Assembly (NCBI GenBank): GCA_039679545.1
Contig: JBDKUT010000155.1
Location: forward strand, 1 to 38,511
Length of the DNA stretch: 38,511 nucleotides
DNA from: Thermotogota bacterium
Lineage (GTDB): Bacteria > Bipolaricaulota > Bipolaricaulia > UBA7950 > UBA9294
Direction of reading: 5' to 3'
Within the stretch, counting starts at the first letter, position 1. Each line of letters starts with the position of its first letter. The translations under genes and the position numbers were made by a program. Positions 1,110-33,376 of the stretch are shown here, piece by piece. A model generated the notes under the pieces. That model ran no database searches. It had not been told where the DNA came from and saw nothing but the letters and a program-made list of their open reading frames with translations.

Positions 1110-1242
1110 GGGGAGAGTTTCCCTTTCCGCGGCCGCGGGGGCAACCGCCCCGATCGATTGTCCTCGCCGCCCGGGAAGAGATAGAATCGACTCATTGATA
1201 AGACAATCTCGCCTGAGGAGGGAGAAACGTGGGACCGTGGTC

Positions 1243-1289
1243 TTGAGTTGAAACGGTCGGTTGGCAGGGCAAGCCGACCCTCAACTCGA
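1243..1289. other. Imperfect inverted repeat / hairpin just downstream of the STAND gene
   Basis: GAGTTGA-AAC-GGTCGGTT ... AGCCGACC-C-TCAACTC, with no clear U-tract. Confidence 0.45.
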
Positions 1290-1304
1290 CTTCAAGCGCG
1301 TAGA

Positions 1305-3485
1305 TCAAGGAGAGTCAGACATTCCGGCTCGGGCGAGGGCTCGTTCCAGCTGTGCCCCAATGCTGGTCGAGTTGTCTCGCAGGTACAACTCAGCAAAGGT
1401 AGAGATGATCACCTCTCGGTACTCCGCGCTGTCCTGCGGCGATAAGTCCAGCAAAGAGGGGAGCACGTCGCCGTACGACCACGCCGTGCGCACGAGCCAA
1501 GCCGAGAAGGCCAGGGCAGCCGCTCTCCGCAGTCCTGCGGTGGCACCGCGTTTCGCCCAGGTCTCGAGCGTGGAAGGCGTGACGTCCGCGTAGTCCGAAG
1601 CCAAGTACTCACCCGCTACCCACTGGAGCTCGGGCTCGCTTTGCAGGCGGGCATCCTTTTCGCACATCGCGTGGAAACTTTTTTCGTCGTACTTCGTTTG
1701 CAGCACGCAGTAGTAGGCGCGTGCTGCGGCGGACCGAATCTCCTTGGTGCGAGTGGGATTGGTGGCGAGCAAATACAGCTCATCAGGCTTCTTCTGTCTC
1801 GACCATTGGTTTGCCAGGGGAGGTACTGCCGCCCGTCGTAGCTCGGCACTTGCGCTTCGATCGCTGGCGATCTCCTCAAGCCACTTCGGGATCCAGCCCC
1901 ATTGCGACAGCGGACCAATGAGCGCGATCCCAGCAGCTCGACGTTCTGCGTCATTGCCCTTGATGGCCAAGCTTCGGAGTGTCACGAACTCCCGGTACCC
2001 CGTGGTCGTGCGAGAGGCGGACTGTTGCTGGCACTCGAGCCCCGCCGCGGTGGCGTAGCCGAGAGCGACGTTCGGCAAGGCATTGACGAACTCGGTATCG
2101 AAGACCTCGTACCACGTGTCCGGCGTGCTGGGCGACGCCAGGCGGGCGGACACGACATCCAATCGGCTTGCAGCCAATGCGATCTTAGCGTTGCCCAACT
2201 CAAGTTGCTGTGCGTGGCGGGTCACGAGGAGGACAACGCTTGTCACCGCCAAGGCAACGACGAGCCCTCCCCCCGCCAGAGCCAACCTCCATCTGCGGCG
2301 GCTTGCCCACCGCGCGTTCGACTGCCGAATGGGCTCGACGAGCGAGTCGTGCGGGATCTCAATCCAGCGGGCGCCAGCGCGCCTCTCGCTCCGAATGATC
2401 CGCTCCGCCTCAAGGGAAGCGATGGCCTCGTTGGGCACTCCCGCGGTGCGTCGTGCCTCCACGTGCATCGTCCCTCGAGTCCCTGTCGACGTGATCAGAT
2501 GCCGGCCGAACAGTCGGCGGAGCGCGGCCTCCCGCGTTCGCGTCTTCTTTCCTACGCGGCGGAGCGCGGCCTCGTAGTAGCGGGCAAGGACGACGCGGGG
2601 GTCCCCGACGGTCGCAACGTGGAAACGCGAGATCTCGGACACGCTGGGGGGAAGGGAGTCCCAGAGCTGCTGGCACACGACCTGGAGCTGAACGGGCTCG
2701 ACGAATTCGCCTTCAACGAAATCCACTCGCCCTTCGTCCTCGAAACGGATGAGGGACAGCTTCCGAATCAGCTCCTCAGCGGCTCCGGGAGCGAAGCTCC
2801 GCTCTGTTGCTGCGAGGGGCATCCTGACCGCCGCAAGAGCGGCGTCCCTTCGGAGTCGCTCGAGGCGGAATCGATTCCTCAGTCTGTCGTCGAACAGCGG
2901 TTCGTAGGGCACGAACGACGCGACGAAGTCCTCACGCACGACGAAGAGCACGCGGAGAAGCGGGTCGCGGCTGAGGGCTTCTTGAACCTGGACGAAGAAC
3001 CCCTCTCGATCCTTCCAGCGGGACGGGTAGTTGACGAAAAGCTCTTCAAACTGGTCGAAGAGAAGAAGGCGCGGCTCCGGGAGCCCATCGGCGTCGGTCA
3101 GGTGCGGTCTTACCGCGAGGAAATCGGCGACCGTTGTCTCGGAACGAGGCTCAAGTTCGCCGAGGAGGAGCCACTGCAGCAGGGCATTGCGGACGAAGAT
3201 GTTCTCTCGTTGGGGAGGAGAAAGGTCGGGAAGGGTTGCTCCGACTCGCGCCGGGGGGAACACCTCGAATCCCTCCCGACGAAGGTTTGGAACCAGTCCC
3301 GCTTGGAGAAGCGACGTCTTGCCGGCTCCGGATTCCGCGTAGAGGAGGACGACGCGATGGGCTGTGATGAGGGCGCGCAAGGCTGCAATCTCTCGCGTCC
3401 GTCCGAAGAAGAGGCTCTCTTCGCCCTCGTCGAACGCACGTGGGCCGACGTAGGGGTACGCCGCCTGCACGACCGCTTCATTCAT
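1305..3485 (-). CDS. nSTAND1-type NTPase with one transmembrane helix and a C-terminal HEAT-like helical repeat domain
   Basis: Motifs: PYVGPRAF..LFFGR, Walker A AESGAGKTS, Walker B LLFDQFEELF, VVREDF, EPVQLQVVCQQLW, EIPHDSL. A hydrophobic stretch LALAGGGLVVALAVTSVVLLV follows RRRWR, then repeated (E/G)(L/I)RxAA helices. The ATG at 3485 overlaps the upstream stop (ATGAATGA). Confidence 0.85.
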   Translation of the reverse strand: MNEAVVQAAYPYVGPRAFDEGEESLFFGRTREIAALRALITAHRVVLLYAESGAGKTSLLQAGLVPNLRREGFEVFPPARVGATLPDLSPPQRENIFVRNALLQWLLLGELEPRSETTVADFLAVRPHLTDADGLPEPRLLLFDQFEELFVNYPSRWKDREGFFVQVQEALSRDPLLRVLFVVREDFVASFVPYEPLFDDRLRNRFRLERLRRDAALAAVRMPLAATERSFAPGAAEELIRKLSLIRFEDEGRVDFVEGEFVEPVQLQVVCQQLWDSLPPSVSEISRFHVATVGDPRVVLARYYEAALRRVGKKTRTREAALRRLFGRHLITSTGTRGTMHVEARRTAGVPNEAIASLEAERIIRSERRAGARWIEIPHDSLVEPIRQSNARWASRRRWRLALAGGGLVVALAVTSVVLLVTRHAQQLELGNAKIALAASRLDVVSARLASPSTPDTWYEVFDTEFVNALPNVALGYATAAGLECQQQSASRTTTGYREFVTLRSLAIKGNDAERRAAGIALIGPLSQWGWIPKWLEEIASDRSASAELRRAAVPPLANQWSRQKKPDELYLLATNPTRTKEIRSAAARAYYCVLQTKYDEKSFHAMCEKDARLQSEPELQWVAGEYLASDYADVTPSTLETWAKRGATAGLRRAAALAFSAWLVRTAWSYGDVLPSLLDLSPQDSAEYREVIISTFAELYLRDNSTSIGAQLERALARAGMSDSP

Positions 3486-4359
3486 GGTGCGACCGGTTTC
3501 GCCAGCGTTCACTCAACTCCTTCACAAAGCTCCGCGCGTCTCCCCAATAGACGCGCATGTCCATCCGTTCAAAGTAGTCCGCCAGGTACCCTTCGGCGCG
3601 CGAGCGAACGTCAGCGGGTGCGTCCGAGGCGATCGGCGGCAGCTGAACGGTGACGCTCAGCCTTCGAAGGCTTGATTCCGTCGCTCCGATCAGTCCCTGG
3701 AACAGGACTCGGAAGCTCCAGTCCCCCAGGCTGTATCCGATGAAGAGGAGGGATCGCCCGCTGAGGGCCTCCTTCACGGCGGGGTGGAGGAGCTGCGGAT
3801 CCTGCGAGATCATCACAAGGTAGTTGAGGTAGTCATCCTCGGTAAGAACGAGCGACTCCGGGAGCCCGCGCCAACCGTGAAGGTGGAACACGACCGGCTC
3901 CTGCACGGTGGGCGGGGCGGAATCGAAGAGGCACTCCTCGTCGCGGAGTCGGGTGTTCCAGCGGCACACGGCGCGGCGCGGGGAGCGTCCGTGGTGCTCC
4001 AGCGCGGCGAACATCAGGTCGTCGTAGTTCGTCGTCAAGTAGAGCTTGAGGGGAAGGGACGCGAGAAAGGCGTGCGGCTCGAGAGGGTCGTCGAAATCGG
4101 GGAGCGCGGCATCGGTGAGGAATTGACGGACGAACTCCTCCTTTGGGAACATCGGGTCGTACTCGACGGCAAGGTACTGAGCGACACGGGCCAGGTCCGA
4201 ACTGCTGTCGAGGGGATAGCCGTAGTCGTGGCTCCACCGCGCGGCAATCTCGCCCCCAAGGGGCAGGACGCCGGCGCAAGCGCCGGCGCCGAGGAACGGC
4301 GTGCACTTCTTCTCCCCGATTCGGTCTATGAGGAGCCGCCAGTTCTCTTCCGTCAGCAT
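3478..4359 (-). CDS. Stand-alone SIR2-like (SIR2_2 family) protein, putative NADase
   Basis: Motifs: PFLGAGA, YLTTNYDDL, VFHLHG, LVLTEDDY, LLFIGYSLGDWSFR. AAGGAGG lies upstream of the ATG at 4359. Confidence 0.88.
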   Translation of the reverse strand: MLTEENWRLLIDRIGEKKCTPFLGAGACAGVLPLGGEIAARWSHDYGYPLDSSSDLARVAQYLAVEYDPMFPKEEFVRQFLTDAALPDFDDPLEPHAFLASLPLKLYLTTNYDDLMFAALEHHGRSPRRAVCRWNTRLRDEECLFDSAPPTVQEPVVFHLHGWRGLPESLVLTEDDYLNYLVMISQDPQLLHPAVKEALSGRSLLFIGYSLGDWSFRVLFQGLIGATESSLRRLSVTVQLPPIASDAPADVRSRAEGYLADYFERMDMRVYWGDARSFVKELSERWRNRSHHE

Positions 4360-4514
4360 GGTGGGTGCATGCCTCCTTCGACCGCACGGCCAGCCGGCTC
4401 CGTCGCCGACGGATATCATAGGTGAACAGAGCCTAAACGAGAGTAGAACCGATGAGCGCCGGCGATGTCAAGTCAAGCGAACGGTCAAGACCAACCTCGG
4501 CGCCCGCAGTGCGC

Positions 4515-4525: not shown

Positions 4526-5182
4526 ATGGATGAGCCTCGGCGGATCGATCTTGAGCGATGGCCTCGGCGCGAGGCGTTCGAGCTCTTTCGCGGGCTCGGG
4601 TTTCCGTACTTCAACCTGACGGCCGACGTCGACGTCGGCCCGCTGCGAGAGGCGGTTCGCGCTTGTGGGGCGTCGTTCACCGTGGCGCTCGTCTATGTGC
4701 TCGCTCGTGCGGCCAACGAGGTTCCCGAGTTCCGCCAGCGGACGTGCGGAGTGGGGGTCATCGAGCACGCCGCGGTGCATCCCTCCATTACTGTACTTGC
4801 CGACGACGGGACGTTCCGCTTCGTGACGCTCAAGTACGAGGAGGCGTTTGGTTGCTTTGCGGCGGACGCGAAGCTGCGCATCGAGCGTGCTCGTCGCGCC
4901 GAGTCGCTCTGGTCGGAGCCCGATCGGGACGATCTCCTGTTCATGACGGCGATCCCCTGGGTCGCGTTCACAGGGATGATCCACCCGGTTCCGCTCGACT
5001 CGCCGGACTCCGTGCCGCGGATCGCGTGGGGCAAGTACCGCGACGTCGGCGGACGGCTGGCAATGCCCCTCAACGTGCAGGCCCACCATGCGCTGGTCGA
5101 CGGGATCCACGTTGGATACTTCTTCGGCCGCGTGGAACAGCTGCTCGCGTCGCCGAACGGGGCACTCGGGGCAGCCGCCTAG
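4526..5182 (+). CDS. cat: CatA-family (chloramphenicol) O-acetyltransferase
   Basis: 218 aa. Motifs: IDLERWPRREAF, RAANEVPEFRQR, TAIPWVAFT, PRIAWGKY, and the catalytic QAHHALVDGIH. Confidence 0.88.
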   Translation: MDEPRRIDLERWPRREAFELFRGLGFPYFNLTADVDVGPLREAVRACGASFTVALVYVLARAANEVPEFRQRTCGVGVIEHAAVHPSITVLADDGTFRFVTLKYEEAFGCFAADAKLRIERARRAESLWSEPDRDDLLFMTAIPWVAFTGMIHPVPLDSPDSVPRIAWGKYRDVGGRLAMPLNVQAHHALVDGIHVGYFFGRVEQLLASPNGALGAAA

Positions 5183-30026: not shown

Positions 30027-30800
30027 GTGAAACGCACAGATCAAGGCACGCACGCGCTGTTTGTCCTGCTGGTAGCTGCCCTCGCCGTCACCGCGGCGGC
30101 ATCGTGGATGACGGGAAGGGGCGAGGCGGCGCCATCGTTCCCACTCCTTGCGACACACTGGGGACAAACGGGGGTGTATGCAAGATTCACGCCCGGCAAC
30201 GAGCGTGCAGGATGCTGGTCAACCGCCCTTGCCCAAATCCTCTACTACCACCGGCTGCAGCCATCAGGGTCGGTGAGCTATCGGTGTTCGGATGGGACTG
30301 TCGTTTCGGAGAACGTTGGAGCCCAGGCGTTCAACTGGAACCTCTTTGTCAACGACATCAACGCGACGACCTCGGAGCCTGCTGCAGATGAAGTAGCACG
30401 GTACATATACTACGTCTCCGTTGTCATTGAGAAGGACTTCGGGACAGGGGATTACGTGCTAGCCCACTCCGACCGCGCTCGGGCGCTCTCCCGATACTTT
30501 GACTGTCGGGCGAAGCTCTACACGAACGAGTCCAGCTCCATGGGGCAGATCGTGAACGTCATCAAGGCCGAGCTCGACGCTGGGCGTCCCGTCATGATGC
30601 ACCTGCGCGACCGGGCGCGGTCGAACTTCCACGCCGTTGCCGTTGACGGCTACCGTTCCACGGGCGGCAACCTCGAGGTCCACGTCAACATGGGCCATGA
30701 GGGAGAAGGCGATGGCTGGTACCTGTTTGGGGGCACGATTGGTGGCTACGACGACAACTCCTACCGTAGAGTGATGACGGTCGCTCGCGGAGGCGGATAG
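30027..30800 (+). CDS. Peptidase C10 (streptopain-like cysteine protease), exported
   Basis: Signal peptide; motifs PLLATHWGQ, catalytic AGCWSTALAQILYYH, ELDAGRPV, catalytic HAVAVDGY, HVNMG..G..DGWY. Confidence 0.85.
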   Translation: MKRTDQGTHALFVLLVAALAVTAAASWMTGRGEAAPSFPLLATHWGQTGVYARFTPGNERAGCWSTALAQILYYHRLQPSGSVSYRCSDGTVVSENVGAQAFNWNLFVNDINATTSEPAADEVARYIYYVSVVIEKDFGTGDYVLAHSDRARALSRYFDCRAKLYTNESSSMGQIVNVIKAELDAGRPVMMHLRDRARSNFHAVAVDGYRSTGGNLEVHVNMGHEGEGDGWYLFGGTIGGYDDNSYRRVMTVARGGG

Positions 30801-32074: not shown

Positions 32075-33121
32075 TTACGGGAGTCCCCACAGGCGGATCG
32101 ATCCTTTGCCGGTTCTCAGCTCGTAGCCGCCGCTGCCGGCTGCGATCCGAGTCCCGTCGGGAGAGAAGGCGACAGACCAGACGTCAAGACCGCTGCTTGA
32201 CAGCGTTGCCAGGGGGCTGCCGGTCGCGGGATCCCACAAAAGGAGCTTTCCTCCCGCCCCCGATGTGGCCAGGATGGAGCCGTCGGGGGACCAGGATACG
32301 CCCCGCGCCCAGGAGCGCCCCACCTGAAGGCTTCGCACCTCAGCTTGGGTTGCGGGGTCCCAGAGACGCACGAAGCCGTCCTGGCCGGCGGCCGCGATCC
32401 ATTGCCCGTCGGGTGACCACGCGACGCCGTTAATGTCATTCCGCGCGCGCGTTGCAGCTCGCATCGTAGCGAGCGCGGCACCGGTCGTCGGATCCCAGAC
32501 GCGAAGCGCGTAGTCGAGTCCGCCCGAGGCGAGGCGTGCTCCGTCCGGGGACCACGCGATCGCGATGACCTCGGTCGAAAGACCTCCCTCCACGTGACCG
32601 GGCCACTGGAGGAGGATGTGGAGATCCATGGAGTCGAGGACGGCGATCGTCCCGTCGCCCTCGCCGACGGCAATGCGTGTTCCGTCAGGCGACCAGGCTG
32701 CGCAATGGGTGCACAGTGCGGGAAGCTCGAGCTCGACAAGCTTGTCTCCCGTCGCGGCGTTCCATACACGGACCATACTGCCGCAGCGCACGGAGACAAG
32801 GCGCGTCCCGTCCGGCGACCACGCCACACCCCAGCGGCTCACGTTGCCTTGCTCGAGCGTGAGGAGAGCTAGTGCAGTCTCCGAATCCCAAACGCGGACG
32901 GTTCCGTCCGAGCTGGCCGAGGCAAGGCGTGTTCCGTCGGGCGACCAGGCAATTGAGTAGACGGCGCCTTGGTGGCCTACCAGCTGAGCCAACTCCACGA
33001 CTTGGCTCACTTGCTCAAGGCGAATCGGGGACGGAGCGTCGGCAGAAACGCACGACAGTCCCGACACCAGGACGACGAGGAGGGCGGACCTACACGCAAC
33101 ACGACAGGACCTTGGATCCAT
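32075..33121 (-). CDS. WD40-repeat (about 7-bladed beta-propeller) exported protein
   Basis: Seven (W/F)SPDG repeats with VWD/LWD ends; N-terminal hydrophobic signal; AAGGAGG precedes the ATG at 33121. Confidence 0.9.
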   Translation of the reverse strand: MDPRSCRVACRSALLVVLVSGLSCVSADAPSPIRLEQVSQVVELAQLVGHQGAVYSIAWSPDGTRLASASSDGTVRVWDSETALALLTLEQGNVSRWGVAWSPDGTRLVSVRCGSMVRVWNAATGDKLVELELPALCTHCAAWSPDGTRIAVGEGDGTIAVLDSMDLHILLQWPGHVEGGLSTEVIAIAWSPDGARLASGGLDYALRVWDPTTGAALATMRAATRARNDINGVAWSPDGQWIAAAGQDGFVRLWDPATQAEVRSLQVGRSWARGVSWSPDGSILATSGAGGKLLLWDPATGSPLATLSSSGLDVWSVAFSPDGTRIAAGSGGYELRTGKGSIRLWGLP

Positions 33122-33376
33122 AGGCCTCCTTCGACTCCTCAAGGAGTCACCGTACTCTTGCCGCGGCTGCAAAGCGCTCCGCACGAAGAGGCCACGCCCG
33201 TCCCATCGCAGCGGTGAAGTTCTACTCGGACGCTCTCTGCTGCGCAAGATGGCCCTGCCTATCGGTGACCCTCATTCCGCGTGCTGTCCAGTGCGTTGGC
33301 TGGCTGCTTGTTGCAGCCCCGGAATCTGCGGCGGAGAATGCCTAGCCGAGCTTACGTGAGGTCGAGCGAATTGACG

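Follow-up and report, generated by a model that had tools for sequence, protein, structure and literature searches.

A SIR2 protein encoded with a predicted single-pass membrane nSTAND1 NTPase: a candidate two-gene immune receptor from a Thermotogota bacterium

The gene pair and its predicted proteins

The contig JBDKUT010000155.1 of a Thermotogota bacterium, from a genome of 2.35 Mb with 65% G+C, was analysed as a whole (38,511 nucleotides (nt); hereafter the window). On its minus strand it carries a gene for a stand-alone sirtuin of the SIR2_2 type followed by a gene for a nucleoside triphosphatase (NTPase) of the nSTAND1 clade with a predicted membrane helix (Table 1). A preliminary description of this DNA had reported two co-oriented genes overlapping by 8 nt, a lone SIR2_2 domain with GAG, TTNYD, and HG motifs, and an NTPase lacking an N-terminal effector, and all three observations were confirmed. 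The overlap, ATGAATGA, suggests translational coupling of the two genes. If the NTPase started instead at an in-frame upstream GTG codon, the protein would have 735 amino acids (aa) and the overlap would be 35 nt, and the protein would still be without an effector domain.

The SIR2 protein matches the Pfam family SIR2_2 with an E value of 2e-24 (86.7 bits against a cut-off of 24.5), and its motifs are located at G24-A-G, T109-TNYD, and H159-LHG with the catalytic residues N111 and H161 intact. The best sequence matches in the PDB are the ThsA structures 7uxt and 6lhx (E 3e-19), and KomC and DSR2 are matched as well. The AlphaFold2 (AF2) model of the protein has a predicted local distance difference test (pLDDT) score of 91, and its best Foldseek matches are the BcThsA structures 8btp and 8bto (TMq 0.74), with N111 aligned to the ThsA Asn that is replaced by Ala in 8bto. 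PADLOC gave a partial ThsA match (E 1.8e-17) covering profile positions 19-202 of 478, and NCBIfam names neither the SIR2 protein nor the NTPase. The family comprises 3256 proteins at E <= 0.001, mostly ~290-305 aa long among the matches listed, and the nearest named locus (L003, labelled Candidatus Bipolaricaulota) encodes a SIR2 protein that is 89% identical. According to the available text of two studies, the Asn equivalent to N111 is required for defence by EfAvs5 (PMC11897194) and both the Asn and the His are needed for activity of FAM118 (PMC12700824). Because these equivalent residues are essential in EfAvs5 and FAM118, the SIR2 protein is predicted to be an NAD+-consuming enzyme (NADase).

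The NTPase matches the Pfam family nSTAND1 (PF20703) over residues 11-384 (E 1.6e-35, 123.9 bits against a cut-off of 27.1), and since the match begins at residue 11 there is no N-terminal effector. Residues K56, D144, Q145, E147, R184, and H379 are invariant in 66 sequences. No PADLOC family matched the protein at E 0.1, and the Avs profiles are thus without a match; a sequence comparison with the PDB gave no significant match. Residues 403-421 form the one strongly hydrophobic stretch of the protein (Kyte-Doolittle 2.47, next best 1.26), with five Lys/Arg residues before it and one after. On these grounds we predict a type-II topology with a single membrane pass for the NTPase, in keeping with the earlier suggestion that the sensor may face outside the cytoplasm.

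The AF2 model of this receptor (mean pLDDT 89.9, predicted TM-score 0.60) contains a confident NTPase, a long helix at residues 380-450 with low confidence over 422-457, and, with high confidence, 16 helices at residues 464-721. The transmembrane helix and the helical C-terminal domain of the preliminary description therefore stand, as one predicted helix and 16 modelled ones, whereas its HEAT-like label is weakly backed by sequence: the nearest relative of the protein matches HEAT_2 at E 5e-5, below the cut-off, and an Atlas score of 0.75 is a lead only. The C-terminal domain has no Pfam match and is nearly private, as a search of 1.84 billion representatives gave its own cluster alone below E 1e-30 and weak matches beyond it.

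Table 1. Features of the gene pair in the window and of a neighbouring family in related loci (L numbers)
Feature	Position	Strand	Basis or remark
Stand-alone SIR2_2 (ThsA-like) sirtuin, 293 aa; predicted NADase effector, probable adaptor	3478..4359	-	Pfam, PDB, AF2/Foldseek
726-aa protein: nSTAND1 NTPase, then membrane helix, then helical C-terminal domain	1305..3485	-	alternative GTG start at 3512
nSTAND1 module, aa 1-398: Walker A AESGAGKTS (50), Walker B LLLFDQFEE (140), R184, winged-helix EIPHD (376)	2292..3485	-	
Predicted single transmembrane helix, aa 403-421, N-in/C-out by positive-inside rule	2223..2279	-	hydropathy and charge
HEAT-like C-terminal domain made up of helices, aa ~464-726, nearly lineage-specific and predicted to act as an extracytoplasmic sensor	1308..2096	-	AF2
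Stop/start overlap, 8 nt, ATGAATGA	3478..3485	-	sequence; 63/80 related loci likewise overlap
Accessory slot between APH-family kinase and CAT-like acetyltransferase genes, occupied here by the pair	1149..4495	.	flanks adjoin in congeners
Multi-helix membrane protein family, directly upstream of the pair	L024:3651-4253, L025, L030, L043:7144-7917, L048, L064, L073, L078		
Multi-helix membrane protein family, other positions	L052 (downstream), L056 (opposite strand)		

The pair in related genomes

A scan of species-representative genomes with catalytic-motif patterns yielded 268 SIR2 relatives; the top-ranking 80 loci were analysed. They span at least 13 phyla, chiefly Acidobacteriota (23 loci) and Chloroflexota (20), and include one archaeon. 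An nSTAND1 gene lies directly downstream of the SIR2 gene in all 80 loci, at a distance of -35 to +19 nt in 79 of them, and the N-terminal extension of the NTPase is no longer than 33 aa in 79. A reciprocal scan of metagenomes led by the NTPase covered 1 of 64 parts and returned 62 loci, eight of which scored above 200 bits. One of these (L084, with 112 nt upstream) was left out of the count, and a SIR2-domain gene stands directly upstream of the NTPase in the seven core-clade loci that could be assessed. Among the lower-scoring loci 30 of 54 also have a SIR2-like match, and those checked encode SIR2-TIR, CHAT-SIR2, lone, or fused forms. The SIR2 and nSTAND1 genes are a conserved two-gene unit in 80/80 loci, and the effector is a separate protein, as the preliminary description had it; the feature is real and widespread. 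The effector slot is taken in some relatives by CHAT, TIR, or trypsin domains. SIR2-nSTAND1 fusions make up 5 of the 120 longer homologues among the matches listed, three of them with the helix. Two simpler accounts of the layout were rejected: a frameshifted single gene is ruled out by the split kept in all 80 loci and by purifying selection on both genes, and a third core component is ruled out as the commonest neighbouring family occurs in 10/80 loci and no such component is found in the window.

The membrane helix was counted in 72 of the 80 loci (eight shortened loci were dropped) and in 115 of 120 homologues (five with short C-termini were dropped). It follows the NTPase in 67/72 loci and 100/115 homologues, 90 of which have exactly one helix, and Lys/Arg residues are in excess on the NTPase side in 60/67 and 95/100, respectively. 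The NTPase and the helix are joined by a linker of 3 to 237 aa. The domains that follow the helix are exchanged freely, and in the 72 loci they are WD40 (32), TPR (18), FGE (2), M4 (2), FHIPEP (2), CBM96 (1), and HEAT (1), with no recognised domain in 14. In 30 chosen homologues S8, amidase_2, M14, M23 (once with SH3_3), LamG, InlB B-repeat, Sel1, and collagen domains were found. Such post-helix families are typically extracytoplasmic. Members without the helix carry S24, EAD9, or SIR2 after the NTPase. The FHIPEP match in the post-helix region of L035 and L036 is weak; FHIPEP is a flagellar/type III export protein family.

The relatives also vary in their SIR2 domains. Motifs were counted in 56 loci with a lone SIR2 gene and 22 with a tandem, after L039 and L059, whose SIR2 genes are broken, had been dropped. 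Both N111 and H161 are kept in 56/56 lone copies and 22/22 first copies of tandems and in 6/22 of the NTPase-adjacent second copies, so that the second copy is degenerate in 16/22 tandem loci. H161 is absent in 90/90 proteins with CHAT followed by SIR2, and the His and Cys motifs of the protease are kept in 82/85 full-length ones; in four proteins with SIR2 followed by CHAT, Asn and His are both kept. Additionally, a 201-genome sample of one class gave 18 matching genomes in which 10/10 CHAT-SIR2 loci lack H161 and 8/10 have an nSTAND1 gene directly downstream. The dead copies have also lost GAG-loop residues, yet they retain their position and their surface motifs. Because dead SIR2 copies are retained beside the NTPase, a non-catalytic role seems likely, most simply docking, and because they carry or accompany another effector (either the CHAT protease or a further SIR2 that is active), the SIR2 fold would act as both enzyme and adaptor in the family. 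The fold thus probably doubles as an adaptor, a role that the preliminary description overlooked. The series of a lone active SIR2, a dead SIR2 joined to a CHAT protease, and an active-plus-dead tandem points to a sirtuin pseudo-enzyme that serves as an adaptor.

One residue follows the NTPase-adjacent position. Q239, at the end of the strand after the GY motif and 30 residues past Y209, is kept in 56/56 lone copies, 20/22 second tandem copies, and 89/90 CHAT-SIR2 proteins and is lost in 22/22 first tandem copies. The available text on EfAvs5 counts S233, which lies 31 residues past Y202, among the NAD+ contacts (PMC11897194), and because of this similar offset Q239 may line the NAD+ pocket. 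We do not claim Q239 as a proven docking residue, as the pattern has one or two origins and the residue may belong to the pocket. In a SIR2 tree of 141 rows, with 20 of the 90 CHAT rows sampled, the first tandem copies form two starred clades, possibly of one origin, and the sampled CHAT-SIR2 proteins form one clade.

The pair is a mobile accessory unit. The SIR2 gene is present in 2/41 genomes searched, its own included; no paralogues of the pair were found in its own genome by tblastn. The kinase and CAT-like flanks adjoin without an insert in the congeners G001:C8 and G005:C94. In G003 this CAT-like gene precedes the pair, and other DNA separates the pair from the kinase. The contents of the slot differ among congeners (window 1149-4495; G001:C193, G002:C103, and G003:C1), and it looks like a small variable site. 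Compared with L003, the ratio of nonsynonymous to synonymous divergence (dN/dS) is 0.066 for the SIR2 gene, 0.17 for the NTPase, and 0.27 for the helix and C-terminal region, and dS is ~1.0 in the pair and 0.3-0.4 in the flanking genes; purifying selection acts on both genes of the pair. In the tree, the window SIR2 groups with mostly Chloroflexota and Rhodothermota rows in a starred clade, a placement that is consistent with transfer and implies no direction. By Pfam and NCBIfam, the neighbours of the pair are genes for an APH-family kinase, a CAT-like acetyltransferase, rimO, PadR, and an ABC transporter. The CAT-like O-acetyltransferase gene (window 4526-5182) scores under every NCBIfam cut-off and is present in congeners too. 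Farther along the window are a peptidase C10 family gene (30027-30800) and a WD40/PD40 propeller gene (32075-33247). Rfam gave no match at the locus, and a promoter and terminator scan of it returned nothing informative.

Several further genes accompany the pair in relatives. A family of 200-260 aa multi-helix membrane proteins without a Pfam match, some fused to TIG domains, lies beside the pair in 10/80 loci and may be an accessory membrane effector. A protein of ~210 aa with an N-terminal half of unknown kind and a C-terminal receiver domain is encoded directly upstream of SIR2 at L021:7327-7968, L061:7294-7944, and L070:7316-7945. Chains in which SIR2 is followed by nSTAND1-HEAT-SIR2 and then by nSTAND1 occur at L091:1643-6824 and among the proteins P0244, P0245, P0247-P0249, and P0253. 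In them a soluble STAND protein that ends in SIR2 precedes a second NTPase, an order that suggests relays. At L092:333-4223 a SIR2-nSTAND1 protein is joined to an Hsp70 domain that is nearly complete (E 3e-196). Finally, genes are split over several open reading frames in some loci (the NTPase in L047, L057, L075, L080, L081, and L082; SIR2 in L039 and L059), and this reflects either decay or long-read frameshifts.

Proposed mechanism and alternative readings

We propose that the pair encodes a single-pass membrane immune receptor that recruits and activates a separate SIR2 protein to deplete NAD+, a reading to which we give an even chance. The helical domain outside the cell would sense a ligand or envelope damage, which would cluster the outer domains, and the cytoplasmic nSTAND1 NTPase would then oligomerise. 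The assembled NTPase would dock the SIR2 protein and activate it by assembly, as in ThsA and Avs5, and the activated SIR2 would deplete NAD+, with growth arrest or death as the outcome. We infer these last steps, NADase activation driven by oligomerisation and the arrest or death that would follow, from Avs5 and ThsA. In available descriptions, the characterised bacterial STAND receptors Avs5 and Avs7-21 sense intracellular phage proteins, and the effector of Avs5 and Avs7 is in the same chain. If the proposal is true, such a receptor, sensing the outside and activating an NADase encoded apart from it, would carry bacterial innate immunity out to the cell surface. Because the member described here is compact (293 and 726 aa, two genes), trans-membrane STAND signalling could be tested directly with it through an NAD+ readout.

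We consider a more far-reaching version of this proposal less likely than not. The pair could belong to a widespread family of cell-surface pattern-recognition receptors in bacteria with a Toll-like topology, an NLR-type switch inside, and SIR2 as the universal docking adaptor in the manner of CARD/ASC. An active SIR2 would then be the executioner, and a dead SIR2 would be the scaffold for a caspase-like protease or for a second SIR2. With such receptors, a cell would react to adsorbing phages, to predators, or to an attack on its wall ahead of any entry into the cytoplasm.

A number of observations weigh against the receptor proposal. A defence-island context, which the preliminary description had put forward as a check, is absent at the window, where Pfam recognised no defence genes among the genes scanned (30 further open reading frames included), and is weak in relatives, where 10/124 flanking genes match PADLOC at 1e-10, about four or five of them with defence-specific models and with no background control. 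The helix is absent in 5/72 loci and 15/115 homologues, and the N-in/C-out topology predicted for the family is based on hydropathy and charge. The commonest sensors, WD40 and TPR, are compartment-neutral, and some C-terminal domains are enzymes (S8, M14, M23, and amidase), for which a sensor role fits less simply. On the SIR2 side, the 80 loci were found through catalytic-motif patterns, so that part of the motif conservation in lone copies and first copies comes from the search itself; the patterns of the classes reflect few events, so that their counts are not independent; and 2/10 of the sampled CHAT-SIR2 genes have no adjacent NTPase. Frameshifts or gene-calling errors could account for the SIR2-nSTAND1 fusions.

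Some of these observations would suit an envelope or developmental signalling receptor in which SIR2 makes a sub-lethal NAD+-derived signal or modification that reports on cell-wall state or cell contact. The weak association with defence islands, the enzymatic and cell-wall-binding C-terminal domains, and the receiver-domain gene directly upstream in three loci are all compatible with it, as is the finding of no relative of the pair among viral contigs. We nevertheless consider this unlikely, as the closest folds of SIR2 are the anti-phage NADases ThsA, KomC, and DSR2, the effector slot has been exchanged for CHAT, TIR, and trypsin domains, and gain and loss at the accessory slot are patchy. 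Another account keeps the defence role and dispenses with the outside ligand: the helix would tether the NTPase or sense what happens within the membrane (DNA injection or pores, for example), with the C-terminal domain as a scaffold, a decoy, or a second effector. The wholesale swapping of post-helix domains and their faster evolution, which resemble a variable recognition domain, make this account improbable in our view, even though four loci without the helix (L052, L054, L067, and L073) retain the same SIR2-NTPase pairing. The linker variation is awkward for one rigid transmembrane switch and to that extent speaks for a tether, but activation by clustering would tolerate variable linkers.

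The coupling could also be indirect or reversed. SIR2 might answer a nucleotide change or regulate the NTPase through ADP-ribosylation or NAD+/ADP-ribose sensing, in which case the dead copies would be ligand sensors. The retention of Q239 in NTPase-adjacent copies and its loss in first tandem copies would fit a pocket of this kind, if the residue does line it. The near-invariant translational coupling and the fusions argue in the other direction, as does the loss of GAG-loop residues from dead copies that keep their position and surface motifs, and we place little confidence in this account.

Comparison with known systems

The literature search, which covered few subscription papers, found no description of the SIR2/nSTAND1 pair. 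The main text of PMC7159879, as available, contains no Sir2 or sirtuin; the SIR2/nSTAND1 arrangement is not mentioned in the available text of PMC12803255, which treats 589 STAND clades, and the available text of 10.1101/2025.09.30.679545 holds nothing on the pair. The same search found no description of a sirtuin pseudo-enzyme adaptor, and the series of dead SIR2 copies as adaptors is the newest element of the finding. The preliminary description held that the pair matches no named system. This is correct in that no PADLOC or NCBIfam system fits, but the layout itself has precedents in split operons and in a predicted system termed PCTM.

Among single-chain and multi-gene NADase systems, Avs5 is similar in combining a SIR2 NADase, a STAND NTPase, and a C-terminal sensor, and its defence function depends on the catalytic Asn and on the Walker motifs according to the available text (PMC11897194). 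Unlike Avs5, which is one polypeptide, the window has two genes with a stop and a frame change at 3478-3485 and, ahead of the sensor, a membrane helix. Thoeris ThsA is the closest protein to the window SIR2 in both sequence and fold. However, the window SIR2 lacks the SLOG domain, because the protein ends after the SIR2 domain, and no TIR gene (ThsB) was seen beside it, the partner being a STAND protein. The protein does not belong to DSR2, as NF041819 scores 10.6 bits against a cut-off of 1400. KomC of the Kongming system, matched through KomC and KomBC structures, and Sir2-HerA resemble it in that a stand-alone SIR2 works under a separate partner protein. The partner is KomB for KomC and the HerA ATPase for Sir2-HerA, and neither is a membrane-spanning STAND.

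Membrane-associated sensing has been proposed for other systems. PCTM (bioRxiv 10.64898/2026.10.19.760177) is a predicted system that, in its available text, is proposed to sense envelope perturbation. It resembles the pair in having a cytoplasmic NTPase with a C-terminal helix and a periplasmic domain of variable type, and in its coupling to an effector gene upstream, whereas its NTPase is ParA instead of nSTAND1 and its effectors are SLATT, 2TM, caspase, or CPPC-4h. Bacterial NACHT proteins with transmembrane segments (bioRxiv 10.1101/2022.07.19.500537) are likewise STAND proteins, for which intramembrane or periplasmic sensing has been proposed, but these belong to the NACHT clade, typically have multiple transmembrane segments, and are described in the available text without a separate SIR2 partner. 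A periplasm-facing target of a STAND protein was predicted earlier (10.1101/2023.09.22.558884, as far as its text is available).

The nearest precedent was provided by Kaur et al. (2021; PMC8195603), who defined nSTAND1. The Figure 2 source data in the available part of their supplement include the split operons 'TIR -> nSTAND1+TM' and 'TIR+DrHyd -> nSTAND1+TM+BetaPropeller', and 'nSTAND1+TM' occurs 461 times in the file, in which the DrHyd rows have DUF4062 deflines. None of the eight occurrences of SIR2 in that file represents SIR2 -> nSTAND1. Section 7 of the article does not discuss the helix or the split layout in its available text, and the operons there are candidates. The window pair is like these operons in its NTPase clade and in having a stand-alone gene for an NAD+- or nucleotide-processing effector upstream of an effector-less nSTAND1+TM protein with a variable C-terminus, and it is unlike them in its effector, which is SIR2_2 here and is tabulated there as TIR, TIR+DrHyd, caspase, or kinase. 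The pair is distinct from Avs5, Thoeris, DSR2, and PCTM; its layout has already been tabulated with other effectors, and the SIR2 effector sets it apart from these.

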